IMG/VR virus record: IMGVR_UViG_3300009506_000043
Span: 1 to 52,997 of that record
Length of the DNA: 52,997 nucleotides
Direction: 5' to 3' (one strand)
Origin: a virus
Lineage: Duplodnaviria > Caudoviricetes
In this document: in pieces, positions 11,641-49,266 of the stretch
How the letters are laid out: every line of letters begins with the position of its first letter
Position numbering within the stretch: position 1 is the first letter of the stretch
Notes under the pieces: generated by a model
Database searches by the model: none
What the model was told of the DNA's origin: nothing
Seen by the model: only the letters and a program-made list of their open reading frames with translations
Made by a program: the position numbers and the translations under genes

Positions 11641-11920
11641 CGTCCTTTAGTGCAGCCTCCTTCTTCATTCGCTGATAGGTGCGAACCAAGTGAACATGGT
11701 AGAACTCTCGGAAGTGGCCGAGAGCATAGACGAGTAATCCGTAGGCGCCTTCACTGACATTCGGAGGGCGCCGGCGGAAATTCAGAGGCTTGCCGGATTC
11801 CTTGTAGCAGACTTTGCCGTCAACCAACTCGACAAGCCGAATGACCTGATAAACCCACCAGACATCCTCGACGATCGAACCCTCAGAGACAGCCTTATTC
11901 AGACTGATTGCGGGCTGCAA
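11453..11920 (-). CDS. Putative terminase small subunit
   Basis: Directly upstream of and overlapping terL; start uncertain (TTG at 11920 proposed instead of 12211). Confidence 0.45.
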   Translation of the reverse strand: MQPAISLNKAVSEGSIVEDVWWVYQVIRLVELVDGKVCYKESGKPLNFRRRPPNVSEGAYGLLVYALGHFREFYHVHLVRTYQRMKKEAALKDDGRRQFELLDQIDQYLVEEANAARQCSTCGRPLGEADRILPRSERAIRQSGVSQEDSGSGGV

Positions 11921-14900
11921 TGATTTCTCGACGCGCTGTTGCTCTCGCTGTCGTGAAGGCCGCTTCGATTTTCTTAATGTCTCGGGCGGTGGGAGGGTCG
12001 TGGAAGTTGATGCGATTGGCGCGCTCAAGGGCGATCTCTCCTGATCGCTGCACGTATCGCTCGTATTCACCTGTCGACAGTAATTCCTTTCTGCCACGGA
12101 TTGTAATGAAGGGCTTCGGCAGACTGGGATGATATTGCAGGTCCCGTTCCGCTTCGGTCTGATGGGCCTGATTCCATTCCCAAAGCACAACATCTGCGGG
12201 GACTCGCTCACTCAGCCGCTTACCCAGCTTGACTGGTGAGATAACACGATACCACCAGGGAGTGGCTGGTGAAGAAGGCTGGATCACCCGACCCCATTTG
12301 TCGTACTTGTGAATCACGCCAGAGACAGGCAACTCGGCCTTCGCGAGCGTCTTGCGAACCTTAGTGCCAAAGTCGTCACCCTTGCGAATCCGGGTGTCAT
12401 ACACCTCATTGCGACCAACTCGCCAGGGCTGCCGAATGATGTTTGGTACAAATCCAACCAGGACATTCTGAGTCAACTGCGGAATGCCAGAAGCCTCTGG
12501 ATCGGTGAATGCGTTCACGATATCCCCGAGGTTCTGCAGGAAAGTCTTGTCCGTGATCTGCCGCAGGAATGCATCCCATTGAGAATCCGTAAGCGACTTG
12601 CCTTTCTGCCGATTATCCAGAAAGTCAATGATCGCTGGCAGGATTGTCGAGGCTGGTTCGAGGCCGGCATAGCTGAAGAATTGCTGGCCACCCCACGGAT
12701 ATCGGATGGAAAGTGGCGGTGCAACTGCCCAGGCTAGATCACGCGCGAGATAGTTGCGCGGTGAGCTGCCGGTGATGACGGGCGTGTCGTCATCACCCCC
12801 ATAGTACAAGCTGGCAACAGCAGCCGTAATTGCACCCCCAACCATCTGTCGTGCCAGGATCTTATTGAAATTCACTTCATGGCCGTGTTTCTCACTACAG
12901 AGTCGCCAGAGGGGCCAGAGCCCGATCCCTGGAAGTCGGGCCATTGCCGCCTCAAAGTTGTTGAGGGGAAAGTTATAGGTGGGAATCAGGAAGCGCCCAA
13001 ATGGCAGCTTGCGAAGACCTCTCGCCGCCTTCTTTAGTTTCTGCGTGCCAGACCACCCAGCCTGCATGAATGTGGCTTCTAATGCCTCATTGTACGCCAG
13101 CGTCCACGCAGTCGAGCGTCGATCCTTCATGGCGCTTTCGATGTAGCGGGCCATGTGCTGCTTATCGAGTCCAAATCGCTTGGCCTGGCGGTAGGCATGG
13201 GCACCGACCACAGAGTAAGCGTAGATCGTCTTGAACATATCATCAGAGGCGCTGAGTGGCCGCCAGCCAAAGCTTCGCACAAAGCGACCCCATGTGCCTT
13301 TGAGGGCAAACCGTCTATTAAGTACCTCGGTCTTGTAGACATCCCAATCTTGGGCAGCGTAATTCGTGGTGATCCCCAGCTGTTCCGCCAATGCGGATTG
13401 CTCATATGCCCAAGTGCTGGCAAAGTTACGGAGCCCTGGAGCAAGGCCCGCCCACATTCCCTTCAGGATGTATTTGAATTCGCCGAGCTGGGCCCCGGAT
13501 ACTTTCTTGCCAAAGAACTGCTGAGCCGCTTCATTCAGAAGTGCCTCGACGAATCGCTCCGGCCCCAACATCAGCAGGCCGAATCCGGTGTTGGAAATGG
13601 CATTCTTCGCATGTGTATGGGGGCCGCTGAAGATCGAATTGCTGTAGAACTCAAACATCTTGTCGGCCCAGGTTCCGCCCGCCCGCTCGATCATGATGAC
13701 ATTGATCAGCTGCATTGTTGCCAGCTCATCCTGGAGGGCGTCTTGCATCTGGTCAATGCTGATCTCCAACTCCCTGAGCCTCTCCAGGATAGCCCAAGTC
13801 GTTTCTGGGCTGTCAGTATCGAAGATGGCTTCCATGATTTTGCGGGCTCGCTTTGCAACGGGAGAACCCATGCAGATTGGATCGCGCATGTTCAAGACGC
13901 GGCTGATCCAACTTCGGGCCTCGCGGCGATAACGAGACAGATACCACGCATCATCAGCAGCCTCGCGACTGCCAAGTGCGCCGACCGTCATCGCATCGTT
14001 TAAGACCATGTTGATCACGACCATTTCCTCTTCCCATTTCCGAGGATCGTTGCCGAGATCAGCGTGTTCATGTGCCTTCATGTACTCCAGAATTCGATTT
14101 TTCTCCCCGTCGGCATCAGCCTGAACTCTTTTAGCGGCCTTCGCTTCAGCCTCGGCATGGGGATGATACTCGGGCGGGCCGATCTCTTCATCATATTTGT
14201 ACTGGAGGGTGCGACCGGCGATCGTCGTGACCGTATTGGCCCGACCAAGATAACGCTGACGTTCCATGAAGGAACGCATCGCATCGGTCTGGGTAATGCC
14301 CTCCCAGTTGACTCTGGGAGGTGGTTCGCTGGGAGCGAACATCAGAGTAGGTCCCACTCCGGCAATGGCACGACCGCTTATCCCTGGCGGGACTCGTTCA
14401 GCAATCCTTGCAAGACGCGCTTCACCAGCTCGCGTCTCTGTTCCGGGGAGAGGGCCGGTTGGGACGGGCGGCGCTTGGAGTCTTGCCGCCTTGCGGAGAT
14501 TCTTTGGAGCAACTGCTCGGAGTTTTCTGAGGGCTTGTTGGATTTCGGGATCATTTAACAACTCCGCGAATTCAGGAACGGCAGCAATGCTTTCCTGCCT
14601 GAGGGCCTTCACGACCTCCTTGCCCTTGGCTTTGGCCTTCTCCCCGATTTTAGCAGCTGAGGCGGCTTTCAGGAAGGACCAGATGGCGGATTGTGCCTCG
14701 GCAGGTTCAATGTTCAGCTGCTGGGCTGCGCGACGCACAACGGCAGTCAGGGCCAGGTAGAGGGTATGGGAATCAAAGGCGTTATCGGGTCGAACTCCAA
14801 AGAATTCGGCGAGCCAGCGGTCGACCGTCACGGCAGATAGGTCGCCAAGGAGATTCTTGCGAAAACTACGGACCTTCCAGCCGCTCAGCTCCGCGTTCAA

Positions 14901-17900
14901 GGGATTAACCTCAGAAAACGCAGTCACAAGATTGTTTACACTTGCCCCCAATACTTTCGGCTGGAGCCCCAAGAGAAACTCACGAACCTTGTCCGGCTCA
15001 AATGGCTCACCAGCCTCTTCCCAAGCATCCCAAATACGGAGCGCTTCCTTCAGATTCGTCTGTGCGCTGCGCTGTGGAGACGTGGCGGCTAACACATTTA
15101 CGAAACGCGGCGCCTGATCTCCGAAGATGGTAAACAGTGCCTGATGGGCGAATTGATACCACTCTTGCTTGGCGGCGCCGGCCTGAGCGGCGGCGACTGC
15201 TTCCCCGGTCTTGCCTTTGAGTCCCTCGAAGTGTTGAACCACTCGCTGTAGATAAGCCGGCCCAAGACCCCCCAATTCCTCCTCGGTTAGGTAGCGGGCA
15301 ACAGCTGGGGCCGTGAATGTGAAGAGTCCTTTGTCGCCGGCCTGCTGTGCTTCGATCAAGGATAGGAGCGTCTCCCGTACCTGCTGATCGTCAACCGAGA
15401 ATTTATGGTGAGCCTCTTCGCTGAGTTGATCAGCTATCTCCTGCAGCCATTGGTTATATCCGGTCCAGTCATCATCGGTCCAATTCTGAGAAACAAGAAA
15501 CATTCGCTGACTGTAACTGAGCGGCGCATTGGGAGCCTCTTGCCGCTGATGACTGTCCGGCGGCCCATAAAGGGCATCATTCAGCACTTCGGTAAACAGG
15601 TCGACGTCCTGGGTCAGATCGAGAATCTTCTCGTCACCCTGCCGAATGAGAGCGAAGGCGCGTGCCGCGTAATCCGGCTCCTCTGTGGCTGAGACCCCCT
15701 CTTCGTATCCCACGCCGCCCATAATGTCGGGAAACTCTGCGGCGACCGCTCGGCCAATCGTGTCCCACGGCACATCCATGCTTGAATGGTCCTTGCCGGC
15801 ATTCTCGACCTTGCTTAACGTGATCTTGGTCTGGCCGCTCTTGGCCCGAAGCATTTTGCGGGCAGCATTGCGGCGCCGCTTGGGATCGTACTTGAGTGCG
15901 TGCCGTTCACGCAGGTCCTTCAGAATCTCCTTGGTCCATTCCTCCTTTCGCTCGGGCGTAACGGTCTGGTTTTCCTGTGCAGCCCAAGCGTCAATTGCTT
16001 CATCTATCCGCGCCATTGCCAGGGCCTGGCCATTGACGTCATTACTCGGGCGGCCTGGACCTTTGATCAGTTCCGCCCGGCGAGCCGCAACCCGATCTCG
16101 CTGCTCCTTCAATTCATTCAAGACCGCCAGGGCATCAGGATCAGTAAGGTTCTTGGCTCGCCCGAACAACTTCAATAGGGCATCCACCAACCGCTGCCAC
16201 AATGTCGGCTGCTCTTGTAGTAACTGCTCACGGAAGGCGCCATCTGTGAAGAAGGTGCCGACCATCTCGGCCATTGCTTCCCGCCAATACCAGTCCGTCT
16301 TGTTGCCTTTGTCGTCGATCAGGTATTTGCGATACCCGGTCATATCGGGCGGCAGTCTTTTCATGTACTGCTGACCGAACTGATCAAGGCGCGCCTCTCC
16401 CACCAGAGCCTTCAAGACGTCCACTTCAGTAGCATGGGCCAGCTCGTGGCCGGCGGTGTACCAAATTGCCTCCTCAGCGGCTCGCTCGTCCAAGTAGAGT
16501 ACGCGAGGCCCTCGCACTCGTTCATCGACAAAGGAGATTTCTGCGGTGCTCGTGATAATGCGGACGTCATGCCCGAATGCTTGGGCTAATTGCTGCGCCG
16601 CCTTTTCTTGCGAAGAAGACGGTTCCCGCATCGAGGTAACTTCCACAGGCACGCCGAGTTCTTTCATCCGGTCATTGAGCTGTTCCAGCGATAACACCGC
16701 AGGTGGTGCGAGCGGGGGCTTGGCCTTCTCTGGAGCGGCGGGGACGGGCTGTATTTCCGTACCGGTGAAAAACTCCCCGAATCGCTTTCGGAGAATCCTG
16801 CGAACCTTGTCGTAATCGTAGTCCCTCATCCCCCTCCCCATGTCTTGCCGAATGTCAGACATGAGTGCTGGTACGCCTCCGAAACCGTACTGATGGAAGG
16901 TTGGATCGCCACGCTCAATCACATCGAAACGACCCATTACCTTATCAGTAAACGGCTGGTCCTCGTTGAGAGTGGAACCTTGTGGGACATCTAACAGCTC
17001 ACCAAACTCCGCCTCTATCTCCTGGGATATACGATCTGCTTTGTCCTTACTGCCAAGGTAGATGGTATAGTCTTTACCTTTCTGTCCACTACTGCGGCCC
17101 TCCTTGAATAAAACTCCCTTCTCTCTCAGCTTCTGCGTAACCGCATCCCTATTCTCCTTCGAGACGGCTAAATGCAACTTCCAGCCAGCACCCTCTACTG
17201 CCATGTCTTTGTGCATATCAGGAGCATTCGGGCTGCCGGCTGGTGGAACGTAGTATCCAGGAGTCTTCGCCGGCTGACTTACTGGTATTTGCGGGACGAC
17301 GGCTTCGACCTCGGCAGCTGCTGTTGCTGGACCCAACTCCCCAGGCGTCAGCTCCTGATAACGACCAGTGCGCTCAACCATGCGCTGGGCGAGCGCCCGC
17401 CTGATCGTGTCCTCATCCTGCTGGAGATCCTCCTTGCTCAAGGGATAGCCCATTGCCTTCGCAGCCGATGCCAGCCCTTCTTTGTCCAGATCCCTCAGCT
17501 GGTCATATTGGCGCTGGGCGCGTTCTGAAAGTGGGGCTGGCGCTGCCCCTACTTGTGCTTCCGGTGCTTGCTGTGCTTCGGCTTCCGCCCCGTGGCGTAG
17601 CTCAGGCCGGTTTTCGCCTGGGCGATTCTGATCGCTGATCCCTCCGAGTACCCCTTCGCCTGTAGGTGGCGCTTCAGGCGGGCGACTTTCGAGTTTTTCG
17701 GCATGACTGATCTCCTTCTGATAGGGTTTGACTTGCTTAGCCAGGATCTCCCGAATCATCGATTCGCGGGACCGAACTTTTGGAAATCCAAATCTCTTGG
17801 CAATATCCCACTTTGACATTGCCTCCAATTCCTGACGAATAGCATCCTCGGCTTCAGGAAAGGCCAGAACCTTTTCCTTCTGAGCCTCTGGAAGCTCCAG

Positions 17901-19676
17901 CACGCGGAGAAAAGATGGACCACCTCTTGGTGCCTGTTGTGCCGCGAGCCGCTCTTTAGACATCTGGACGATTCTGGCGCGGGCCAGGGCGTCCAGCCCC
18001 AGGTCGGCCAGGTTCTTCCTTGGAACCCCTGCAGCTTCAGCAAACTGGGTCCGGGTAGGAATCTCTGGTAGGTTAGCGAGTGCGTCCCATTGGTCGGGAT
18101 GTTGACTAATGAAGTCGCGGGCCAACTGCGTCCTTTTGTGCTCAGCCGATACTTCCGCCTCGGGAATTTCCTCGACCGGAGTTGGTTCGGGGGTTTCCGT
18201 GGCCGGAATTGGCTCGGGGGCGAGAACCTCCTGAACAGCGGCTTGAAACTCAGTCGGCTCGGCTGCAGGTTCGGCCGGCGGCGCTTCCGTGGCCTTTTCC
18301 CGTTCCTTCCTTGCCGCCGCCAGTCGCTCGCGGAAGTCTTTGGCTAAAGTGATCTGCGGGCCTTCCCCCAGCGCCTCCCTTATCACAGCGGCCCCAGCAG
18401 GGATCCCAAGGAAGCCCAGATACTGAGACATCAGATCGACAGCCAAATCCTTGTAGCGACCTTCCTTGATTTCCTCCAATGTTCGACTGTCGCCAGGCGA
18501 GACCGTCGCGGCTCGGGCAAACTCCTCAAAATACTCTTCCACCATTTCAAGCGGAGGTGCCTGCAGCTGCGTGCGCTTGGCGAATTTGGCGACCTTGCCC
18601 TTACCGAAAATGCTGGCGTGCTTGTTCATCATGAATTGCGCCAGCTTCTTGGGAAAATAGCCCTTCTGCGCCATCTTCCGGGTGGTTCCGCTGATCGTGC
18701 CACCAAGTGCCTCTGAGGCAGCCGTGATCGATTGGCCGATGAATGCCTTGGAGTAGGCAGTCAGTGGGCTTTCGCCTTCCGTCAATCGACGGCGCTCGGC
18801 CTCGGCGGCGATTTGCTGAGGCATGCCAAGGGCCTGGACGGCAGATCGAGCAACGACGGCGGCCACGCGGCCAGAAAGCTTGCGCGTAACGCCCTTAATG
18901 CCGGCCTTGGTGGCGGCTCGCATCGTCATCTTCGCGGCCCCTGCTCCGGCGCGAGCGGCCAGGCCGGCGGGCAGTGCGAATTCGGCAACATAACCTGGCA
19001 GCGAGGTCATGATATCAACGCCGCCCTGCGTCACTCGCTTATACCAGGCTTTCTGATCCTGATTCTCGTGCCAGCGATTCTCCTGGATGAATTGCCCAAG
19101 AAGTAGGTAATCACCTGAATCAGCTTCACCGGCATTGAAGCGATTGACGGCACCTCGGAGTTTGACCAGCTCACCGACTTCTACGCCGGTCCCCACAAAA
19201 GGAATTCTGCTGACCCAATACTTGAGGTTCTCGCGATTAGTCGAGAGATCCTCGAACATGGCCATTGCGCTCAGGAGTCGCTTTTCGGGCAGGGCCTGGT
19301 CATCTGCCCAATCATTCGGCTGAACGCGAGTGTAGGAGGCCAACCATTCGTCCTGATCAATTTGGCCTAGGGCAAATCGATAGTCCTCGGAGCTGCCCTG
19401 CCCTGCGCCTACACGGCGAATTGCTACCTGGGTCGGACGAAGGCCGCTTTCTAATCCGGCTTGAATGTCTTCGGGGACGGCAAACTCAATCTGCTGAGTG
19501 AGTTTGCCAATCCCCTGAGAGGCAGTCTCCATCAGCTTTGAGAGCGGCTTCTGTTCTCCATTGGCGGCTTGCCGGGGACCTTCCTTAAAGAGTCGCTGCA
19601 GACCCTCGTGTGAAATCTCAAGTCCATCGCCGAGAATCCATTTTGTGCCATCCCAGGTTGCGGGTATTTGGGCCAT
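11895..19676 (-). CDS. Giant multidomain internal virion (ejection) protein, polyvalent-protein-like
   Basis: 2593 aa; HELAH zincin motif, GWKLHL..GKDYTIY module, WY..AATSPQ..KVRSF..VTVDRW..QSAIW module, helical C-terminal core-protein region. Confidence 0.75.
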   Translation of the reverse strand: MAQIPATWDGTKWILGDGLEISHEGLQRLFKEGPRQAANGEQKPLSKLMETASQGIGKLTQQIEFAVPEDIQAGLESGLRPTQVAIRRVGAGQGSSEDYRFALGQIDQDEWLASYTRVQPNDWADDQALPEKRLLSAMAMFEDLSTNRENLKYWVSRIPFVGTGVEVGELVKLRGAVNRFNAGEADSGDYLLLGQFIQENRWHENQDQKAWYKRVTQGGVDIMTSLPGYVAEFALPAGLAARAGAGAAKMTMRAATKAGIKGVTRKLSGRVAAVVARSAVQALGMPQQIAAEAERRRLTEGESPLTAYSKAFIGQSITAASEALGGTISGTTRKMAQKGYFPKKLAQFMMNKHASIFGKGKVAKFAKRTQLQAPPLEMVEEYFEEFARAATVSPGDSRTLEEIKEGRYKDLAVDLMSQYLGFLGIPAGAAVIREALGEGPQITLAKDFRERLAAARKEREKATEAPPAEPAAEPTEFQAAVQEVLAPEPIPATETPEPTPVEEIPEAEVSAEHKRTQLARDFISQHPDQWDALANLPEIPTRTQFAEAAGVPRKNLADLGLDALARARIVQMSKERLAAQQAPRGGPSFLRVLELPEAQKEKVLAFPEAEDAIRQELEAMSKWDIAKRFGFPKVRSRESMIREILAKQVKPYQKEISHAEKLESRPPEAPPTGEGVLGGISDQNRPGENRPELRHGAEAEAQQAPEAQVGAAPAPLSERAQRQYDQLRDLDKEGLASAAKAMGYPLSKEDLQQDEDTIRRALAQRMVERTGRYQELTPGELGPATAAAEVEAVVPQIPVSQPAKTPGYYVPPAGSPNAPDMHKDMAVEGAGWKLHLAVSKENRDAVTQKLREKGVLFKEGRSSGQKGKDYTIYLGSKDKADRISQEIEAEFGELLDVPQGSTLNEDQPFTDKVMGRFDVIERGDPTFHQYGFGGVPALMSDIRQDMGRGMRDYDYDKVRRILRKRFGEFFTGTEIQPVPAAPEKAKPPLAPPAVLSLEQLNDRMKELGVPVEVTSMREPSSSQEKAAQQLAQAFGHDVRIITSTAEISFVDERVRGPRVLYLDERAAEEAIWYTAGHELAHATEVDVLKALVGEARLDQFGQQYMKRLPPDMTGYRKYLIDDKGNKTDWYWREAMAEMVGTFFTDGAFREQLLQEQPTLWQRLVDALLKLFGRAKNLTDPDALAVLNELKEQRDRVAARRAELIKGPGRPSNDVNGQALAMARIDEAIDAWAAQENQTVTPERKEEWTKEILKDLRERHALKYDPKRRRNAARKMLRAKSGQTKITLSKVENAGKDHSSMDVPWDTIGRAVAAEFPDIMGGVGYEEGVSATEEPDYAARAFALIRQGDEKILDLTQDVDLFTEVLNDALYGPPDSHQRQEAPNAPLSYSQRMFLVSQNWTDDDWTGYNQWLQEIADQLSEEAHHKFSVDDQQVRETLLSLIEAQQAGDKGLFTFTAPAVARYLTEEELGGLGPAYLQRVVQHFEGLKGKTGEAVAAAQAGAAKQEWYQFAHQALFTIFGDQAPRFVNVLAATSPQRSAQTNLKEALRIWDAWEEAGEPFEPDKVREFLLGLQPKVLGASVNNLVTAFSEVNPLNAELSGWKVRSFRKNLLGDLSAVTVDRWLAEFFGVRPDNAFDSHTLYLALTAVVRRAAQQLNIEPAEAQSAIWSFLKAASAAKIGEKAKAKGKEVVKALRQESIAAVPEFAELLNDPEIQQALRKLRAVAPKNLRKAARLQAPPVPTGPLPGTETRAGEARLARIAERVPPGISGRAIAGVGPTLMFAPSEPPPRVNWEGITQTDAMRSFMERQRYLGRANTVTTIAGRTLQYKYDEEIGPPEYHPHAEAEAKAAKRVQADADGEKNRILEYMKAHEHADLGNDPRKWEEEMVVINMVLNDAMTVGALGSREAADDAWYLSRYRREARSWISRVLNMRDPICMGSPVAKRARKIMEAIFDTDSPETTWAILERLRELEISIDQMQDALQDELATMQLINVIMIERAGGTWADKMFEFYSNSIFSGPHTHAKNAISNTGFGLLMLGPERFVEALLNEAAQQFFGKKVSGAQLGEFKYILKGMWAGLAPGLRNFASTWAYEQSALAEQLGITTNYAAQDWDVYKTEVLNRRFALKGTWGRFVRSFGWRPLSASDDMFKTIYAYSVVGAHAYRQAKRFGLDKQHMARYIESAMKDRRSTAWTLAYNEALEATFMQAGWSGTQKLKKAARGLRKLPFGRFLIPTYNFPLNNFEAAMARLPGIGLWPLWRLCSEKHGHEVNFNKILARQMVGGAITAAVASLYYGGDDDTPVITGSSPRNYLARDLAWAVAPPLSIRYPWGGQQFFSYAGLEPASTILPAIIDFLDNRQKGKSLTDSQWDAFLRQITDKTFLQNLGDIVNAFTDPEASGIPQLTQNVLVGFVPNIIRQPWRVGRNEVYDTRIRKGDDFGTKVRKTLAKAELPVSGVIHKYDKWGRVIQPSSPATPWWYRVISPVKLGKRLSERVPADVVLWEWNQAHQTEAERDLQYHPSLPKPFITIRGRKELLSTGEYERYVQRSGEIALERANRINFHDPPTARDIKKIEAAFTTARATARREIIAARNQSE

Positions 19677-22016: not shown

Positions 22017-22284
22017 TTATTGGTCCCCAGAGAAGGCGATAGAGTCTGCGGTCTAGTTCGTTCAGCCAGGCTTGTCGTGCAACACAACCACAGCCTCCAT
22101 TTCGGCGTTGTTTAATCCCAAGTAAAGTCAGCAGCCGCTTTAAGCGATCTCCCCAGCCCGGCTGGCAACATAAACGCAAGGGATTTATGCGCGTGTTGGT
22201 CGGGCCGAGCAGTCGATTACATCGGATGCAGCGGTGCCTCCATTTGCCATACCTGTACTCATAAAGGAAAAAATCACATCTCAC
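21781..22284 (-). CDS. Cys-motif hypothetical protein
   Basis: CxxC and CGCxxRQxWLN motifs; 3' half overlaps next gene. Confidence 0.5.
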   Translation of the reverse strand: MRCDFFLYEYRYGKWRHRCIRCNRLLGPTNTRINPLRLCCQPGWGDRLKRLLTLLGIKQRRNGGCGCVARQAWLNELDRRLYRLLWGPINVTYTTLPLATKTQDAHRQKRPAAKGIHLGWTRPNFRLAARWIYGTLWRWRRSGRSQFRERTPLPAAPGRVGRHGSSR

Positions 22285-33040: not shown

Positions 33041-33720
33041 TAACCGAGAACGAGTTAATTGAAAGAAAAGAAAAAGGATTTGACTGACAGGGAGGGGCGG
33101 GACGGAAATGAGGGTGAGGGAAGGGGAGCACCGATGCCTATCAGGCGAACTTGTATGACAAGTTAAAGGCAGTCGGTCGGGCCGGCGTCGTGCTCGGCTG
33201 GTCAGCAGGCGGAGGCGGGCTCGGCCTCATCCTGTCCGCGCGTCGCGTGCGTGCTTCGCCTTCTGCTTCGGCCTGATCCCCCAAGGGCCAAATCCCCGCA
33301 GGCTGCTCGAGGTGGTGGGGGCTGCGTCAGCCCATGCCTGGGTGCAGGCGGGCGGGCTGCGCTCCCATCAGCGTGCCTGGGCGCGCTCAAGGGGGCCCCT
33401 GGGCGCGGAGGGGGGGCTCCAGGATCTGAACCACGCCCCCCGGGCGAGGCAGGCAGCCTTCCTACCTTATAGCGCCCCTTTAGTCTATACCAGTTCTGGG
33501 AGGGACTTTAGGCAACCTAGGACGTATGGAGCTGTTTACAGTGTGGCCCATACTCTTGGACTGTGTATAACGTATTACCGCGTGCGGGCGGGGGCGGGCG
33601 CGTGTGTGCCTGCGCGTGTGCGCGTGCGCGAGGGGGCGCAGAGAAACGCCCGTCAGCTGGTGGCATCCTGACGGGCGTCAGCCTACCGATGCTGTCGGTA
33701 GGGGTGTGTCAAAGGTTCCT

Positions 33721-37684: not shown

Positions 37685-38086
37685 TCACCCCTCAATTTCT
37701 GCCTGAAGGATGGACCAGCGGTAGATCAGATAGTCGAAGGCTATATGCGCCGGCGCATCATTCCTGATGCTCGTATTCGCAGCCTCTTGCCAGTCATCAA
37801 GTAGGAGTTTCATGCGGTCAACCAGTCCTTGGAGTCGGTTCTTGTCGATCTGCAGCTTGTGGGCCCCAATAACGAGCCTGTCGTACTCCTGGATCAACCA
37901 GACGTGATGTGACGCAGCGGCATTAACCGTAGAAAAGTCCGCCCTCACATCTTCGCCCTGCATGATCGTATAGCCGCCCAAGCTGTTGCCATGCATTCTT
38001 ACCCGAAACTTCCTCTCGTTTTTCTGAGTCGACGATAGCTCGTGTGGCAAATTGTGGATGAACGGATCTCTATCTCCATTTGGCAT
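37685..38086 (-). CDS. Hypothetical protein
   Basis: Start reassigned to MPNGD after AGGAGG. Confidence 0.55.
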   Translation of the reverse strand: MPNGDRDPFIHNLPHELSSTQKNERKFRVRMHGNSLGGYTIMQGEDVRADFSTVNAAASHHVWLIQEYDRLVIGAHKLQIDKNRLQGLVDRMKLLLDDWQEAANTSIRNDAPAHIAFDYLIYRWSILQAEIEG

Positions 38087-38087
38087 G

Positions 38088-38714
38088 TCACCCCTCCTGA
38101 CCCCCGGCGGTGAAGCCAAGGGCTTCTTCGGTATCTGCGACCAAGTTAGCCTCTTCATCGATTGTCCAGCCAATGAGCCACCGGTTCAGTAACTCTTTCA
38201 GCCGCTGATTATCCTCACGAAGTTGTGCCTCCCTGCCGCGCACTTTATCGACGATGGCAAACTGGCTGACGACGATCTGAGCCATTTGGTTCTCGGTAGA
38301 ATCAAGACACTCTTGCGAACCTCGTTCCAGCTTGGTGACTACTCGACGCAAGTTGGTGAGGATTTCGTTTTTCGTTTCCATCCCAGCCATCCTTTCTGGG
38401 TTAGTCACCTTCACAAATCCAAGAAGGTCGTCGTTAAACTCCTGCAGTGCCACATGGGCGATCGCTTGACATTGATCAAGCGCGACAGCGCGCCCCTCAA
38501 GGTATGCCTCTCTCATATCCGCTGGACCCCTCAAGGGAACGCGACAAATCTTCTTCAGCGCCTTCAGTAGGATTTCCTGGCGCCGGATCAATTCAGCGTT
38601 GCGTTCAATATCGTTCATCACAGCCTTCCTTTGCACCGATGGAATCCATATGGCCCGGCCAAACTCGGCTTGCTTGCGCGATTCGGGATCGGGTGGCAGT
38701 TGATCAATCCCCAT
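38088..38714 (-). CDS. Coiled-coil hypothetical protein
   Basis: Start reassigned to MGIDQ after AAGGAGG; the longer 311-aa call runs through the pentamer array. Confidence 0.6.
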   Translation of the reverse strand: MGIDQLPPDPESRKQAEFGRAIWIPSVQRKAVMNDIERNAELIRRQEILLKALKKICRVPLRGPADMREAYLEGRAVALDQCQAIAHVALQEFNDDLLGFVKVTNPERMAGMETKNEILTNLRRVVTKLERGSQECLDSTENQMAQIVVSQFAIVDKVRGREAQLREDNQRLKELLNRWLIGWTIDEEANLVADTEEALGFTAGGQEG

Positions 38715-38735
38715 CTCACCCGCCTCCTTCACGCT

Positions 38736-38830
38736 GTCTTGTCTTGTGCAGTCCGAAGATGTCAGGGCTGATGTCGTCCAGTCGTATGGCATGCGATGCC
38801 GTGTGGTGAAGTGCGGTCGTGCCGCGTCAT
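38736..38830 (-). ncRNA. Pentamer-periodic array 2 (candidate guide RNA), 19 units
   Basis: Plus-strand units gtctt gtctt gtgca gtccg aagat gtcag ggctg atgtc gtcca gtcgt atggc atgcg atgcc gtgtg gtgaa gtgcg gtcgt gccgc gtcat; pattern R-T-S-N-N. Confidence 0.7.
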
Positions 38831-39330
38831 AACTTCTTGTTATTCCCATCCGAGAACAGCCGTAGGGTATCTCCGATCGCCAGCCGACCATTACGGGCCG
38901 TGACCGCCCCGAGTAACTTCTGTTGCGACTTCGGGCGCATGAACAGTGCCACGGTGCCAAGTACACTGGCGGCCAGGCTGTGGCGTGTCTGGGCCTCCTC
39001 GGGTAGTTTGTCGAATTCAACACGCTCCAGGCGCCAAAGCTTTCGCTTGGTCAGCCGCTTGAGTGAGGTCATGGATTGGTCGCTGACGCTGGCCTGCTCC
39101 TGGGGCGTGAGTAGTTTGATTCCTTGGCGCGGGATGCAGTCAAACAGGCGGCCGGTTTCGCGCTCGGCTATTTTGCGGGCAGTCATCAGGCAACCGCGCA
39201 TCTCCTTAGTGACGTCGGCGCCGGCGATGACGCTCAACACCCCGTAGCTGATTAACTCATAATCATTATGCTCGACCGACTCAATCAGTCGCCGGGCAAG
39301 CATCTGTGCTTCGATTTTCGGTGTAAACAT
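38827..39330 (-). CDS. Accessory protein of RAMP locus (possible winged-helix N-terminus)
   Basis: 167 aa, GAGG RBS, lies between the two arrays. Confidence 0.7.
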   Translation of the reverse strand: MFTPKIEAQMLARRLIESVEHNDYELISYGVLSVIAGADVTKEMRGCLMTARKIAERETGRLFDCIPRQGIKLLTPQEQASVSDQSMTSLKRLTKRKLWRLERVEFDKLPEEAQTRHSLAASVLGTVALFMRPKSQQKLLGAVTARNGRLAIGDTLRLFSDGNNKKL

Positions 39331-39349
39331 GATCGTTCCTCGTAAACAT

Positions 39350-39569
39350 GAGTTGTGTTGTCAGGTGCGGCGTCGTCGAATGTAGTCGTGAGCGATTGAG
39401 TCGCTCGTTGTCTAATGTGAACTTGGGGCATCGAATTCTGTCGGATGGAGTGACGTGAGGTGATGACTAGATGAGATTCGTCCCATGATGTCTAGATTCG
39501 TCTTGAGAAAACCCATTGAGATGCGTGTCGTGATGAAACGATTCATGAAGATGCGTGTCATGGTGTAGT
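39350..39569 (-). ncRNA. Pentamer-periodic array 1 (candidate guide RNA or RNAs), 44 units
   Basis: Intergenic; in 5-nt phase from 39350, position 1 is purine in 43/44 units, position 2 is A/T in 41/44, position 3 is not A in 42/44, positions 4-5 vary. Confidence 0.7.
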
Positions 39570-39583
39570 TCCCAGAATGACTC

Positions 39584-40141
39584 TTAGCTCCAGTCGACCT
39601 TTAGGACGTCGAATCGACCATAGAATCCGTTGTTGCTGGGCCGGAATGTACCGAGTCCGATGAATTGTCCCGCATCGCGCAATGTGAGTTCAAAAATCTC
39701 CTCGGTAATGATGTCATCTAACACCAGCACCTCGGCAATCGCTTCCCACTTCATGATGCGAGGAAAGATTTTCCATACTCGGCCCTTACCGCCCCGCTTG
39801 CCGTCAGCCGGCACGTACAGGTGAAATTTGTCAACCTTCTCCAATGGGACTCCAAGCAGCAGGGGCTCGACGCAGAGGATGCCGGCCACGAAGTGCTTTG
39901 TATACTTCTGGTTGCCCTTGCCGGGAATTTTCATGCTTTTGTAAGACGCGGCCTCGGAGAGACAGTTCTTCAGTGCCATTGGCGGAATGAAGACCTCTCC
40001 CTCTTCAGTGACATGCGCCTTGCGCTTCCAGATGCGCTCCTCCCAATCCTCCCAAGTCGCATCCCTAGGCTTTGTCTCGGGCACTGGCGCCGACTGACAC
40101 ATCGGCGTCACGGACTTGAGTAGACAAACTGCAGTCTTCAT
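39584..40141 (-). CDS. Stand-alone Cas7/RAMP-like RNA-binding protein
   Basis: N-terminal strand LKSVTPM, VFIPPMALKNCL (cf. RAMP IPGSSLKG), C-terminal Gly loop GQFIGLGTFRP..GFYGRFDV. Confidence 0.75.
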   Translation of the reverse strand: MKTAVCLLKSVTPMCQSAPVPETKPRDATWEDWEERIWKRKAHVTEEGEVFIPPMALKNCLSEAASYKSMKIPGKGNQKYTKHFVAGILCVEPLLLGVPLEKVDKFHLYVPADGKRGGKGRVWKIFPRIMKWEAIAEVLVLDDIITEEIFELTLRDAGQFIGLGTFRPSNNGFYGRFDVLKVDWS

Positions 40142-40160
40142 GGGTCTCTCCTAGACTAGG

Positions 40161-40205
40161 GACGGGTTCTGACGGGTTCTGACGGGTTCTGACCAGTGTG
40201 GCCAT
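40161..40205 (-). repeat. (AGAACCCGTC)x3 tandem repeat / 9 pentamer units in RAMP 5' leader
   Basis: Plus strand gacgg gttct gacgg gttct gacgg gttct gacca gtgtg gccat. Confidence 0.8.
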
Positions 40206-40492
40206 TACCAAAACTCCTGGCATCGGTTGGCTTCCTCCACGTTGCTTTGAAACCAACCGACTTGAAACGGATCAATGATCTCATACCACCACTCAATCCT
40301 CGTCGTCAGAATCTGGCGGCCGTCTGGCAGCTGAAATACAAGCATGTCTCCTTCATTGCGATAACAGAAAGCATCGCAGTATTCGACGGGAATGAAGATG
40401 CTCGCCGGGCTCTGCGGAATGTAGACAATCATCACTTCCGACTCATACGGATGCAGGATGATCAACGCTGCTACGATCCACGGCCTGGTCAC
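40205..40492 (-). CDS. Hypothetical protein
   Basis: 95 aa, coupled overlap with upstream gene. Confidence 0.5.
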   Translation of the reverse strand: MTRPWIVAALIILHPYESEVMIVYIPQSPASIFIPVEYCDAFCYRNEGDMLVFQLPDGRQILTTRIEWWYEIIDPFQVGWFQSNVEEANRCQEFW

Positions 40493-40734
40493 GTCATCAC
40501 CCCACAGCGGAAGTGTTCCTTCAGCATCTCATGGGCGCGAGTGATGGCCTGACCATCACCTTGTTCAACTCCCTCATACATGCAGCGCAACACGTCAGCA
40601 GCCAACTCACAAGCGCGATCGATGCTGCTGACATGGCCGCCTGTCTTCACCACACAACCGCAGGGCATTTCCTTGATGCCGGGAGTCAAAAAGGCCTCCT
40701 CCTGCCGCCGTCGCAGTTCAGAATCCACGTCCAC
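40489..40734 (-). CDS. Hypothetical protein
   Basis: Start reassigned to GTG at 40734 after GGAGG. Confidence 0.5.
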   Translation of the reverse strand: MDVDSELRRRQEEAFLTPGIKEMPCGCVVKTGGHVSSIDRACELAADVLRCMYEGVEQGDGQAITRAHEMLKEHFRCGVMT

Positions 40735-41401
40735 GCTGGGCAACCTCCAATCCGGTCGCGATGGCCTTCCAGGTTGTCTTATAGTCAGATTTAGTTCGCT
40801 GCTGCTCTTCAGACCAGGCAAGAAGTCGCTGGGCCAATTCTTCATGAAAGGGGATCCATGCTTCCAGCGAGGATCCCACCGCTTTCTCCGACGCAATTCG
40901 CGTCGCGATTCGGATTTCATTCGGCGTGTGGATGGATACAGCAATTTTGTCTCCAACATCTCGATAAACCTTTGCCAGAGGGGCCGCCTTGTCTCGGTGC
41001 GCGGCGGGCACGAGCCTCGCCACCATCTCCGCGATCTGCTTCGCCAGGTCATTTGGAGGCGGAGGAGGGGGAGGAGGAGGCACAGGATCATCAGGGTCTG
41101 CAAACACCACGATGTGTTGTGAGCGAACATTATTTTCCTTCACCAATACTGCGACAGTTTGCTTGGCGGCCCCGGTGAAAATAGCCGTGGTGCTATTAGG
41201 ATCGGGGCAAAAATGGACGTCGATTTCAACGAGCTGCCCATCCTTGATCGTCAGCACCCAAATATCCGAATTCGGGGCAGCCACAACCCGCACAAGCGAG
41301 GGCGGATTGCATGGCACGGGGTTGGCCGGCGTGATATCCACAGCGAAGCACGTCCCTGACAGCCCCAGCAACAGAAGTGAGAGAGTGAGTAACCGCATCA
41401 T
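40718..41401 (-). CDS. Secreted two-domain protein with poly-Pro linker
   Basis: Signal peptide MMRLLTLSLLLLGLSGTCFA; beta domain, PPPPPPPPP linker, helical domain. Confidence 0.7.
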   Translation of the reverse strand: MMRLLTLSLLLLGLSGTCFAVDITPANPVPCNPPSLVRVVAAPNSDIWVLTIKDGQLVEIDVHFCPDPNSTTAIFTGAAKQTVAVLVKENNVRSQHIVVFADPDDPVPPPPPPPPPNDLAKQIAEMVARLVPAAHRDKAAPLAKVYRDVGDKIAVSIHTPNEIRIATRIASEKAVGSSLEAWIPFHEELAQRLLAWSEEQQRTKSDYKTTWKAIATGLEVAQRGRGF

Positions 41402-42474: not shown

Positions 42475-42994
42475 CCAGCGATTCCTTTTGCTTCGTGATG
42501 GATTGAGTCGTATCAACAAGTAGGTCTCTATCACAACGATAGACGGCAGCGTGGCCGCCTTTTTTCTCGCCGGCGGCACAAGTGCATTTCGCAGCGGCGG
42601 TCGCCCAGGCTGCGCGTTGTTCGCGTGATTGAATCTCGCCAGCGGCGAAGGCGAGTGCAATCGTGACCGCCGTCTGATGCCAGATGGTCACAAACCCAGT
42701 GTCGCGGCAGATCGAACACTCATAGTGATCGCGGCGCCAATGGGCATCCTCACTGAGTGTCGGATGTAGGTCGTGCTTGATATGCACGGCGATTGCACGC
42801 AGTTCGCCAGGCCGTGGCATCCAATGTGTGTCGCGCCGCAGCCATTCATCAACTGCAAGGATCAAGGCATCATCAGGCAGGTCGCAGAGAACATCCTTCC
42901 AGATGGCCAATTCGTCCGGGTTGATCTCCTGATGCAAGCCGGTGCAGAGTCGAGAGTACGCGGCGGTGATGTGGGAGGCGTTCATTGCTTGCAA
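42434..42994 (-). CDS. Replication accessory (helicase loader/inhibitor-like) with Zn motif
   Basis: WKDVLCDL..AVDEWL..WMPRPGELR followed by CSICRDTG and CTC; follows initiator. Confidence 0.6.
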   Translation of the reverse strand: MQAMNASHITAAYSRLCTGLHQEINPDELAIWKDVLCDLPDDALILAVDEWLRRDTHWMPRPGELRAIAVHIKHDLHPTLSEDAHWRRDHYECSICRDTGFVTIWHQTAVTIALAFAAGEIQSREQRAAWATAAAKCTCAAGEKKGGHAAVYRCDRDLLVDTTQSITKQKESLDEWARSQIAPAAA

Positions 42995-43914
42995 AACCTC
43001 CCAGGGATTTTGATGCGCCGTTTTCGCTCGGATGCGGCATCCAGTTCCTCCGGCGTCATCTCGGACTTGGGCTTCTTGCCGTCCTTGGGCTCAAAGAGGC
43101 CCTGGTAGCCATTGGCGATCGAGTGGCGGAGCGCAGCGATTGCTCGATCCCTGCCCCAGCCTTCCAGCTTCTGGAGCGTCTCGTAGGCGCCGGTTTCCTT
43201 GATCGGCTTGTGGATCTCGCTCCGGTGCCGAACCCAGTCGAGCCAGGCGGCAAACAGCTCGTCATCGTGGAAAAGGCTCGGCCAGTACAACCGGTCGCAG
43301 AGACCGGGAGGACGGGGCGGTGGGGGGGGGAGCCTTTCTGTAGATTCTTTTGAATCCAAGACATTTGATTCCGAATCCTGGGTAGGATCAAGAGATACCC
43401 TAGCGCCTTGGTTACTACTGTCGTACGACCGGGTCACTACGACCGGGTCACTACGACCGGGTCGTACGACCGGGTCACTACGACCGGTTGAAGCATTTTC
43501 CCCCTCTTCTGGGGACCAGAGTGTTACGACCGGGTCACTACGACCGGGTCGTACGACCGGGTCACTACGACCGGTTGAAGCATTCCGAGTGAGGAATCCG
43601 CCCATCCTACTCACCCGACCCTTGACATGGCGGGGGGCGTGATCGTGCCAATCGTGGATCAGGAGCCGGTACGTTTCATCGCGGTCGAGCCAGCCGGTTT
43701 CGATGAGGGCGGCCAGCAGCTCTTGGGGGTCGCCAGGCCAGTCGGCGAAGATGGCAATTTCCTCGTCTGTGTATCGACCGATATCACCTCTTGGACACTC
43801 CGTCGTGGCCGACATCCAGAGACACTCCAGGAGCCCGACAGCCTCATGCTTCGAGAGTCCCAGGTGGCGCTGAAAGCGGCGGAACTTCAATAGATCAGGC
43901 GCAGTGTGAATCAC
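42982..43914 (-). CDS. Phage replication initiator
   Basis: wHTH-type N-terminus (KFRRF..AVGLLECLW..GWLD..IHDW), repeat-containing linker, C-terminal W..R..SIANGYQGLF; start set at GTG 43914. Confidence 0.8.
   Translation of the reverse strand: MIHTAPDLLKFRRFQRHLGLSKHEAVGLLECLWMSATTECPRGDIGRYTDEEIAIFADWPGDPQELLAALIETGWLDRDETYRLLIHDWHDHAPRHVKGRVSRMGGFLTRNASTGRSDPVVRPGRSDPVVTLWSPEEGENASTGRSDPVVRPGRSDPVVVTRSYDSSNQGARVSLDPTQDSESNVLDSKESTERLPPPPPRPPGLCDRLYWPSLFHDDELFAAWLDWVRHRSEIHKPIKETGAYETLQKLEGWGRDRAIAALRHSIANGYQGLFEPKDGKKPKSEMTPEELDAASERKRRIKIPGRFCKQ
43424..43584. repeat. Iteron cluster / probable replication origin
   Basis: Nine TACGACCGG units; a 60-bp block is duplicated at 43438-43497 and 43525-43584. 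Confidence 0.8.
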
Positions 43915-44473
43915 GGGAAGCGGGCCTTTCTGCGAGTTCTTTCTTGAGGTATCGCATGGCGTATAAACGGTGTGCGGGAAAGACGCAGGCGCCGGTCTCT
44001 CGGTTGAATGCTTTCTCCCGGTGAATACATTGACAGGCGACAATCTCGCGTGATTGCCAGCCGATTAACTCGATAGTTGTGATATTGACCATTCTGCAAA
44101 GGACGAAATAGTCGGCGGCGAAAGTTGTATCTGGCGGGAAAATCATCTCCAGCTTGTGCAGTGGCATTGTGCGGAGATTTATGGCCCTGGTCTTGACCTG
44201 AATCGTCGCATTAGAATCCTGCAAATCTATGGAATCGTCGCCGCCAGGCAGGATGCGCCGATCGACGTTGAAACCTAAATATCTGCCGACCGCCATTTCG
44301 CCCATCAGGCCAAGCCAGTGCGAACCGAATCCGGCCTCAACCCAATCGACGCGATGTTTGGCACCCGATTTCTCTTTCGCCTCCTGCCGAAGCCTGGCGA
44401 GGCGACAGGCATTCTCGACCTCGATGGGCTTGAGTTCGATCGGTTCAAAATTTTCAACTGTCGTAAAGGACAC
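43895..44473 (-). CDS. PD-(D/E)XK nuclease-like protein
   Basis: GLMGEMAV..DSIDL..IQVKTR..DYFVLC..IGW. Confidence 0.6.
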   Translation of the reverse strand: MSFTTVENFEPIELKPIEVENACRLARLRQEAKEKSGAKHRVDWVEAGFGSHWLGLMGEMAVGRYLGFNVDRRILPGGDDSIDLQDSNATIQVKTRAINLRTMPLHKLEMIFPPDTTFAADYFVLCRMVNITTIELIGWQSREIVACQCIHREKAFNRETGACVFPAHRLYAMRYLKKELAERPASRDSHCA

Positions 44474-47671: not shown

Positions 47672-47772
47672 TTCTCCTCCAATTGACGCCGTTCAAATCC
47701 ATCGGCAGAGGATACATCGAGAAGGCGAAGCACAGCAACTTGTCACATCGAAACAGGACCAAATCGATGTGT

Positions 47773-47808
47773 TGTCACTTCCTGTCACTTCCTGTCACTT
47801 CCTGTCAC
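47773..47808. repeat. 10-bp tandem repeat (TGTCACTTCC)x3.6
   Basis: Degenerate copies also at 48041-48067 and an inverted copy at ~48099-48109. Confidence 0.85.
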
Positions 47809-47967
47809 GTCGAAAAACGTGCGCTTATGACACGCGCACAAGAGGTGCGAAATGCTTCGCGCAGAGAAGGTGTGAATTTCCCGATGAAAACAGCACAGTC
47901 TCAATACGGGATTTTGAAAGTGGCAGGGGGTGCGCAGGCAGTGCTTCGGATAGTGCTTCGCCTGCAT

Positions 47968-47997: not shown

Positions 47998-48042
47998 CGT
48001 TCTGGCAGGGGCACCACAACCCCCTGCCGAGGGGCGATTTTG

Positions 48043-49266
48043 TCACTTCCTGGCACTTTCTGTCACTATTTCCTGGGAAATTCGGATTGACTTGCGGCCA
48101 GGAAGTGACTTTGGCACTCTATGCCGGCGCCGAGATGCTTCGCTTTTTACTTCGCCCTCTTCGACCGCCAGTCTCAAGTGCTCCTCCGTCACTTGCAGGT
48201 AGTGTTGCTCGGCGACGCGGCTGGAATGACCGATCCAACCGGCGACAACATGCGAGGGGAATCTATCATTTAATTCTGTCTCTCTGCTCGATCGCATGTT
48301 TTGAAAAAGCTTCGGCCAAGGTATAATACCACGACTCCGCAAAGCGCGCTTGACTCTGTGGTAAACCGTGGGCCCTGTCATCGTCGGATCGTCGATAATC
48401 TGACCCTTAGACTCATGTTGCCAGCGCCGACTCAAAACCTCCCTGACGTCGGGGAAGAGTGGAATCATCCGAATTCGGCAATGCGGGTGCCTGGCCGTCT
48501 TCTGGCAGGTCACACGAAGCGTCCCGCCTTCCCAGTCAATATCAGCCCAGTCGAGCGGGAGGACCTCAGAGGGCACCCTGAGGCCTCCAAAACGGGCCAG
48601 GACGGCGACCAAATACGAGTCGTCATCCAGATCGTCGGCCAGGCTGCGGATCGATTCCTGGGGTACCCAGACGCGCCTAGCGGCCAGATCCGGCTTCGGG
48701 GGCCGAATGCCGGCGAATGGATTGACTGGCAGCCACTGTTTGGCCACGGCCGCCGCGAAGAACTGGCCGGCCTGCCGAAACCGACTCTCCACTGTGGCAG
48801 TCGAAAGCGGCTCGCCCTTGACCGCACCATGCTGGCTGAGCCAAACCAAAAACTCTTGCGCGTCTCCCCGGCTGACCGATCCAATCAATCGATCCGGGCC
48901 GAAAAAAGTCAGGAGATTTCTCTTTACCTTAGCGTGAATTTTTTGGGTAGAGGAATTGACCTGGACAGTTCGGCTGGCGTAGTCAAGCAAGGCGGCCAGC
49001 GTGGCCTGTGGGGCTTCCTCAAGGACCCCAAGCCGGGCGAGACGTTGTGTCATTTGCGGACTCAGGCCTGTGACCCAGGCCCTGGTTTCAGGGTCAAGCG
49101 GCAGGCCGAGCCGCCTTGTGCTCAGAATCATGTCGATGCGCCTCGCGAGTTGCTGCGCTTGGCGCCTCGACGCAACGCCGAGTCGCAGAGTTTGCCGCGA
49201 CCCGTTGAGGTTCCGAAATTGAATCCACACATGGCCTTTCGGCCTCCTGACAACTGACGCCATCAT
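48043..49266 (-). CDS. int: Tyrosine integrase
   Basis: RFGGLRVPSE (R), KT (K), QNMRSS (HxxR variant), WIGHS, HY (Y); start MMASV after GGAGG. Confidence 0.92.
   Translation of the reverse strand: MMASVVRRPKGHVWIQFRNLNGSRQTLRLGVASRRQAQQLARRIDMILSTRRLGLPLDPETRAWVTGLSPQMTQRLARLGVLEEAPQATLAALLDYASRTVQVNSSTQKIHAKVKRNLLTFFGPDRLIGSVSRGDAQEFLVWLSQHGAVKGEPLSTATVESRFRQAGQFFAAAVAKQWLPVNPFAGIRPPKPDLAARRVWVPQESIRSLADDLDDDSYLVAVLARFGGLRVPSEVLPLDWADIDWEGGTLRVTCQKTARHPHCRIRMIPLFPDVREVLSRRWQHESKGQIIDDPTMTGPTVYHRVKRALRSRGIIPWPKLFQNMRSSRETELNDRFPSHVVAGWIGHSSRVAEQHYLQVTEEHLRLAVEEGEVKSEASRRRHRVPKSLPGRKSIRISQEIVTESARK

Follow-up and report, generated by a model that had tools for sequence, protein, structure and literature searches.

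The 52,997-nt viral contig IMGVR_UViG_3300009506_000043, which was analysed over its complete length and is called the window here, very probably carries a VIPR locus, and we put the probability of this reading at roughly 0.85. It would pair a vipr gene with a second gene, vap-like and coding for a winged-helix protein, and its three intergenic tracts would encode about four or five vrRNAs. VIPR (Viral Interference Programmable Repeat) is a CRISPR-related, RNA-guided DNA silencer that was first described in 2026 (bioRxiv 10.64898/2026.04.26.720920). In the part of that preprint available, the systems have GGY/NN guides that follow a one-base-skip rule, fall into seven types, and may use alternative NNNGG, YNNNG or NNNNG repeats. 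A survey made with a genomic language model reports, in its accessible text, 21 clusters of non-canonical VIPR arrays, with GAC/NN, CAC/NN, WGT/NN and TGH/NN arrays, which it reads as divergent VIPR systems (bioRxiv 10.64898/2026.10.21.760802). With GAC/NN and CAC/NN already in print, the window locus is an already known kind of system that has an unusually loose scaffold. As far as these texts go, GGY marks the canonical VIPR subtype and not the family, because GAC and CAC cores have been accepted as VIPR.

The protein encoded by the candidate vipr gene is 185 aa long. Pfam returned no match for it or for the 167-aa product of the partner gene, and a search of PHROGs matched it to phrog_4652, a family of unknown function (expect value, E, 2.1e-10). 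A word-based search gave 797 candidate homologues, of which 709 were retained at E ≤ 0.001, nearly all of about 185 aa. When the PDB was searched with a profile of 48 homologues that includes the window protein (A1), entry 36pp_D, "SUSP1 Vipr protein", was recovered at E 1.2e-8 and the next match had E 0.31. The same entry already ranked first, at E 0.12, when the single sequence was used. The AlphaFold (AF2) model of the protein has a mean predicted local distance difference test score (pLDDT) of 92.7 and consists of a single RRM core with a thumb beta-hairpin at residues ~104–129 and a glycine-rich loop at residues 162–172. Foldseek returned 123 matches to this model at E ≤ 0.001, led by the type VII Cas7 (8yhe_E, E 8.9e-8) and Csm3, with probability 1.0 and TM-scores of 0.5–0.6; no Vipr entry was among the matches in that structure library, which extends to 8 April 2026. 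Judged by sequence, the gene product is homologous to Vipr. An earlier note on this DNA, made from the letters alone, had predicted a RAMP/Cas7 fold for this gene and suggested a likeness to VIPR; the model bears out the first and the profile match the second.

Cas7 proteins assemble along guide RNA with one subunit per fixed step. The window protein shares its RRM core, thumb and glycine loop with class 1 CRISPR Cas7 (type VII) and Csm3 (type III), and these best structural matches would also suit a class 1 CRISPR-Cas remnant, that is, a lone Cas7 that has lost its array and partners. We find this reading scarcely credible. The best solved relative by sequence is SUSP1 Vipr rather than a Cas7, and the protein belongs to a family of 709 homologues whose loci consist of two genes and pentamer arrays, with a step of 5 nt instead of 6 and a non-contiguous guide. 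Moreover, no CRISPR array, Cas5, Cas6, Cas10 or Cas11 gene, other cas gene or adaptation gene was found in the 53-kb contig: defence-system models (PADLOC) matched none of the 30 proteins around the locus, none of 49 open reading frames (ORFs) matched a Cas PHROG, and Tandem Repeats Finder (TRF) detected no CRISPR-like repeat in the window. The earlier note had likewise seen no CRISPR array or cas gene next to the locus.

On the minus strand, the order is a short pentamer tract, the 185-aa ORF, a 253-nt tract, the 167-aa ORF, a 117-nt tract and the next gene (Table 1), and each of the three tracts runs up to the ribosome-binding site of the gene 3′ of it. The middle tract contains 49 pentamers in the same phase throughout with no insertion or deletion, and positions 1–5 of the unit carry 0.05, 0.08, 0.24, 0.62 and 0.86 bits of information. 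Of the 49 units, 46 have a pyrimidine at position 5 and 44 have A or T at position 4. The downstream tract contains 23 pentamers, and among its first 19 units position 5 is invariably a pyrimidine and position 4 is A in 15. None of 2000 shuffles equalled the observed periodicity total for the middle tract, and the same held for 2000 shuffles of the downstream tract. The array-gene-array order given in the earlier note was thus reproduced, and its counts of 9, 44 and 19 units lie near our recount of 8 conforming, 46–49 and 18–19.

The consensus unit in the window is N-N-[G/C]-[A/T]-[C/T] (N-N-S-[A/T]-Y). A triplet that is mostly GAC, CAC or CAT, as first described, holds for the downstream tract (15 of 23 units) but accounts for only about half of the middle tract (23/49), in which GAC occurs 9 times, CAC 8 times, and CAT and ATC 6 times each. 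The canonical GGY constant triplet (YNNGG unit) is not kept, and GGC makes up a single one of the 23 downstream units. The description of a different and more degenerate constant triplet therefore stands, in that N-N-[G/C]-[A/T]-[C/T] takes the place of GGY and the arrays are the most degenerate in the comparison with relatives given below. A search of positions 38000–41000 against Rfam gave no match at E ≤ 1.

The arrays can be divided, with varying confidence, into vrRNAs. The main array between vipr and vap probably holds about three, with uncertain boundaries, and its last units carry AA at the NN positions, like the array ends of relatives. The downstream array can be delimited as a single vrRNA more clearly than any other part of the locus; its ending in AA-units is also found in relatives L015, L019 and L082. 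The upstream tract, counted before as nine pentamers, is in fact a perfect 10-nt tandem repeat at 40161–40193 (3.3 copies, 100% matches by TRF), although it fits the pentamer frame as two units in alternation. Its 10-unit information is 3.87 bits against a threshold of 3.2, and we regard it as a candidate short vrRNA with a guide of two alternating dinucleotides. If used, this alternating pair would specify a target with a 6-nt period; no such target is present in the window (best 13/16).

Elsewhere in the 52,997 nt, the array threshold is reached at only 0.46% of positions, and a 10-nt tandem repeat at 47756–47834 is the only further tract that scores strongly. This tract and a second one at 48041–48067 adjoin the integrase gene and are perfect 10-nt tandems (unit TGTCACTTCC) of 3.6 and 2.7 copies, respectively. 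On the minus strand, the former reads as alternating NN-GAC and NN-GAA pentamers and closes with AACAC, which resembles the end of the main array. Arm-type sites for integrase or excisionase are one possible reading of it; the other is a solo vrRNA whose guide has two dinucleotides. Period-5 autocorrelation also peaks at 8461–8600 and 33041–33160, and these tracts were rejected as pentamer arrays.

Table 1. Features of the candidate VIPR locus, in minus-strand order (positions in the window)
Feature	Position	Strand	Basis
Short upstream pentamer tract, candidate short vrRNA	40150..40204	minus	~8 conforming units; end is the vipr ribosome-binding site
vipr, 185-aa minimal RAMP	39584..40141	minus	Profile match to SUSP1 Vipr, AF2 model, Foldseek
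Main array, vipr to vap	39331..39583 (253 nt)	minus	46–49 pentamers, single phase, N-N-S-[A/T]-Y
vap-like accessory gene, 167 aa	38827..39330	minus	Winged-helix-like model; conserved next to vipr
Downstream array	38715..38826 (tract 38710–38826, 117 nt)	minus	16–17 guide units, then two AA-GAC units

The same arrangement recurs in relatives. We drew 80 of these loci from the 220 confirmed on viral contigs and 80 from the 229 confirmed on metagenome contigs; with the window they make 161 loci, or 126 after dereplication. At least 15 pentamer units lie within 1.8 kb of vipr in 155 of the 161, the window included, and so the flanks of the homologues are periodic, which the earlier note had named as a check. 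In the relatives, the units are on the sense strand and occupy the positions directly upstream of vipr, directly downstream of it, and past the partner gene.

The partner gene, which had also been picked out as part of the system, is conserved as well. A profile of 52 partner sequences (A2) finds a gene beside vipr in 123 of the 160 relatives' loci, and the partner is present in 88 of the 96 loci that extend 900 nt or more in both directions. Partner and vipr share a strand in every case, with the partner downstream in 103 loci, upstream in 15, and in 5 within a hit ORF that overlaps vipr. The AF2 model of the window's partner (pLDDT 93.8) shows an N-terminal winged-helix-like domain followed by a C-terminal helical hairpin. 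Its structural and sequence matches are weak, namely to the winged helix-turn-helix regulator 4nb5 (E 0.018), the PurR N-domain (Z 7.1) and a MAGE-type winged helix (Z 7.5), and PF01035 (the MGMT DNA-binding domain) was found in 6 of the 52 family members. The accessory gene vap of VIPR systems lies next to vipr and is predicted to have a DNA-interacting domain. On the model, the window's partner may be a winged-helix protein.

Guides in published work have been scored by identity over informative positions against shuffled-guide and dinucleotide-preserving nulls, according to the available text (bioRxiv 10.64898/2026.10.15.759431). We took 6827 nine-unit stretches (5726 distinct) from all called arrays of the clade and sought exact gapped matches, with arrays masked, in the 727 kb formed by the relatives' loci and the window. 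From the counts of this search, we estimate that about 0.12 chance matches are expected per skip rule. Exact matches numbered one with no base skipped, three sites with one base skipped (two of them ten units long) and none with two; with three bases skipped there were 11 pairs, which we attribute to uncalled arrays.

The two longer matches are informative. The guide at L073:3538–3658, which belongs to an uncultured phage, has a GTC-type scaffold and lies directly 3′ of vipr, matches L033:2844–2875 at 20 of 20 informative positions with one base skipped. With the wobble base left out, it reads through ten codons in a row at the 3′ end of the L033 vipr gene, where the conserved glycine-loop motif is encoded. 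Published VIPR work, in the text available, describes vrRNAs that match rivals' vipr genes near the gene ends. From its sequence, the L073–L033 match reads as one VIPR system attacking another, outside the published SUSP1 clade. The second guide, found after vap in two related contigs at L092:2009–2086 and L093:2970–3047, matches ten codons at L100:1693–1722 in a gene just downstream of the L100 VIPR locus, and the match stops where the AA-unit tail starts. At the level of sequence, these matches show the one-base-skip rule at work in two relatives of the window, and they involve GTC-type and mixed GGC/GTC/CGC scaffolds. The earlier suggestion that the NN series encodes a gapped target thus gains support within the clade from two natural exact matches.

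For the window's own guides, no self-target was detected in the window: the best site agreed at 18 of 24 informative positions, compared with a shuffled-pool maximum of 19, and skips of 0–3 bases behaved alike. The systems of the discovery preprint likewise lack self-targeting, as far as the available text reports (bioRxiv 10.64898/2026.04.26.720920). An alternative guide format, with three variable bases and a two-base scaffold at skips of 0–2, was rejected, with observed maxima of 21–22 of 27 and null maxima of 20–21.

We also considered the possibility that the tracts act as DNA and that the RAMP gene is simply their neighbour. They would then be curved DNA, or phased sites bound by a regulator such as the winged-helix partner. 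The upstream tract, a perfect tandem with one helical turn per 10-nt unit, would fit such a role, as would the similar tandem near the integrase gene and the winged-helix-like domain of the partner. We nevertheless judge this highly improbable, since the units consist of three constrained and two free positions and contain no repeated site, and since 155 of the 161 loci, counting the window, show this architecture next to a Vipr homologue. In addition, the free positions of the relatives spell codons of other phages under the RNA-guide rule, and vrRNAs co-purify with Vipr in published systems, according to the part of the preprint available (bioRxiv 10.64898/2026.04.26.720920).

Several observations weigh against the VIPR reading of the window. 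The match to SUSP1 Vipr obtained with the family profile spans the C-terminal half only, residues 93–181. The window Vipr differs at 8 of the 67 columns conserved to 90% or more in the others (S12T, Y14M, S15C, E28A, R41K, T79K, E85V and R169S), compared with a median of 2, which places it third of 126. Its arrays are the most degenerate of the 126, with 0.47 bits over the three constant positions and a median of 2.29 for the set, although this figure pools arrays whose phases were picked separately by an automatic caller, and positions 3–5 carry 1.5–1.7 bits in the curated phases. In VIPR systems, a conserved 3′ tail caps each vrRNA. The relatives share a vrRNA tail of AA-units followed by AAGG and a T run (alignment A3), and a tail model built from 55 of them (R1) recognises the ends of the window's arrays no better than E 3.5 and 8; chance matches elsewhere are better, and the best one, at 22173–22187, has no adjoining array. 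By eye, the AA-unit endings of the window do resemble the relatives' tails. Finally, the window guides found no target in the 160 relatives' loci and the window (727 kb; best 19/24, with all skip rules alike), and none in two distant loci, L161 and L162 (best 19/24). The latter were found with the window's O-like replication initiator; the 208-aa gene downstream found no related phage.

These features would be expected of a VIPR locus in decay, in which the genes are still open but arrays and RNA-reading residues are drifting and loading or targeting has been lost. The degenerate arrays, the third-ranked departure from conserved columns, the tails unlike the relatives' consensus and the lack of any target found for the window guides all point in that direction. 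We consider decay unlikely, if not negligibly so. Both ORFs are intact and their models are confident (pLDDT 92.7 and 93.8), and the window protein keeps all 25 invariant columns of A1, a profile in which it is itself included. The 49-unit tract holds a single phase with no indels and a pyrimidine at position 5 in 46 of 49 units, which neutral decay should disrupt, and the changes in the protein cluster at predicted RNA-contact segments and are not evenly spread. Because both genes are intact and the long tract keeps its phase and its position-5 pyrimidine, we lean towards an active copy with a co-diverged, relaxed scaffold. We propose that the relaxed scaffold is matched by unusual residues of the protein, T165 and S169 in the glycine loop and T12, M14 and C15 close to strand 1. 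T165 was found in no other protein of the 161 loci and is shared by only one other homologue among the 120 database matches listed.

By analogy with published VIPR systems, the window copy would be transcribed, loaded and able to silence as follows. RNAs of about 10–20 pentamers would be cut from a transcript of the minus strand. Each unit would be occupied by a single Vipr protomer, with its constant triplet seated in pockets that the glycine loop, the thumb and the RRM sheet provide and its two variable bases left exposed. The resulting filament would pair its NN dinucleotides with double-stranded DNA while skipping every third target base, and a gene of a competing mobile element would be silenced. 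In the window copy, the filament would be built on the relaxed scaffold N-N-[G/C]-[A/T]-[C/T] by a protein that would have co-diverged at its predicted RNA-contact segments.

Comparison with type II VIPR of Escherichia phage SUSP1 and the Pseudomonas fulva prophage, as described in the available parts of two preprints (bioRxiv 10.64898/2026.04.26.720920 and 10.64898/2026.04.26.720927), shows shared features. All have a small single-RRM RAMP with a G-loop and thumb, a two-gene vipr–vap locus in a phage, and tandem pentamers in the intergenic flanks, both upstream and downstream, in whose units three positions are constrained and two vary. All are without a CRISPR array or self-targeting, and the relatives of the window locus resemble these systems in their one-base-skip matches to rival elements. 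Unlike SUSP1 VIPR, the window has an S-[A/T]-Y scaffold in place of GGY, and residues D177, W178 and R138 of SUSP1 Vipr are replaced by T165, F166 and F126. The 3′ tail also differs: where the SUSP1 clade has a pseudoknot, the relatives have a short AA-unit run and a T run, and this tail is barely recognisable in the window. The survey's non-canonical arrays are a further point of likeness, in that the window combines GAC and CAC triplets with NN next to a gene for a Vipr-like fold. The survey text, however, gives a single core per cluster, whereas GAC, CAC, CAT and ATC are mixed within the window's arrays.

The genome around the locus is that of a phage, in keeping with VIPR systems in general, which occur mostly in viruses or proviruses. 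It encodes a terminase large subunit, tail proteins, a tailspike, an integrase, an O-like replication initiator, a RuvC-like resolvase and an exonuclease VIII-like protein (all by PHROGs), and on this gene content the window is classed as a temperate phage, with the VIPR locus placed in its early region. A scan for promoters and terminators gave no signal beyond shuffles. The sequencing runs that contain the stretch are DNA runs from one study labelled marine sediment metagenome, and no RNA run containing it is among the runs listed. Overlapping contigs at least 99% alike show zero differences from it, and the remaining pieces, short and less than 90% alike, were uninformative. Two further features lie elsewhere in the genome. 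The O-like replication initiator gene (42982–44043) contains a 14-nt unit, TACGACCGGGTCAC, in about eight copies at 43424–43584. In lambda, the ori iterons sit inside gene O, and by that analogy the copies are likely a replication origin. In the structural region, a 2593-aa ORF (11895–19676) has a single PHROG match, to phrog_3842 over residues 1499–1670, and the rest of it is unexplained.

The relatives also allow scaffold triplets to be compared with protein residues. Most of the 126 dereplicated loci have GGC/GGY as their constant triplet; a substantial minority has GAC, and smaller groups have CGC or GTC/GTY. With arginine at residue 165, the middle base of the triplet is G in 89 loci, T in 4, A in 6 and mixed in 13, whereas F, Y, M or A at this position accompanies a middle A in 13 of 13 loci. 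With phenylalanine at residue 126, the first base is G in 108 loci and mixed in 6; with tyrosine it is C in 8 and mixed in 2, and with methionine it is mixed in both loci. Residues 165 and 126 align with SUSP1 D177 and R138, which contact the GG dinucleotide according to the available text of the structure preprint (bioRxiv 10.64898/2026.04.26.720927), and the base that each residue tracks in this clade is the opposite of the SUSP1 assignment. No wording on covariation or coevolution appears in the text of that preprint.

On a tree built without columns 165 and 126, we count 5 changes for the non-R165 state and 6 for Y126. Supported branches provide 1 independent pair for residue 165 (5 on all branches) and 3 for residue 126 (6 on all branches). 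Because there are so few, a phylogenetically independent sign test of the residue–triplet link cannot reach 0.05, and we treat the correspondence in these sequences as a lead rather than a finding. A bolder proposal, which we hold to be more probably wrong than right, is that the triplet and residues 165 (glycine loop) and 126 (thumb) have switched together within the clade and make up a scaffold-recognition code. Such a code would render VIPR systems mutually orthogonal and keep rival phages and satellites from placing solo guides of theirs on a phage's Vipr, and the window (T165, S169 and M14, with arrays in which hardly anything beyond [A/T]-Y is fixed) would be a natural variant of relaxed specificity.

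The window itself adds one VIPR system, from a marine-sediment temperate phage, and its value lies in the comparison around the locus. A single Vipr clade spans at least four scaffold triplets (GGC, GAC, CGC and GTC/GTY), each with particular residues at two RNA-contact positions. If the link between residues and triplets is causal, it would offer a route to orthogonal programmable VIPR tools, and it would explain scaffold diversification as an escape from guide hijacking.

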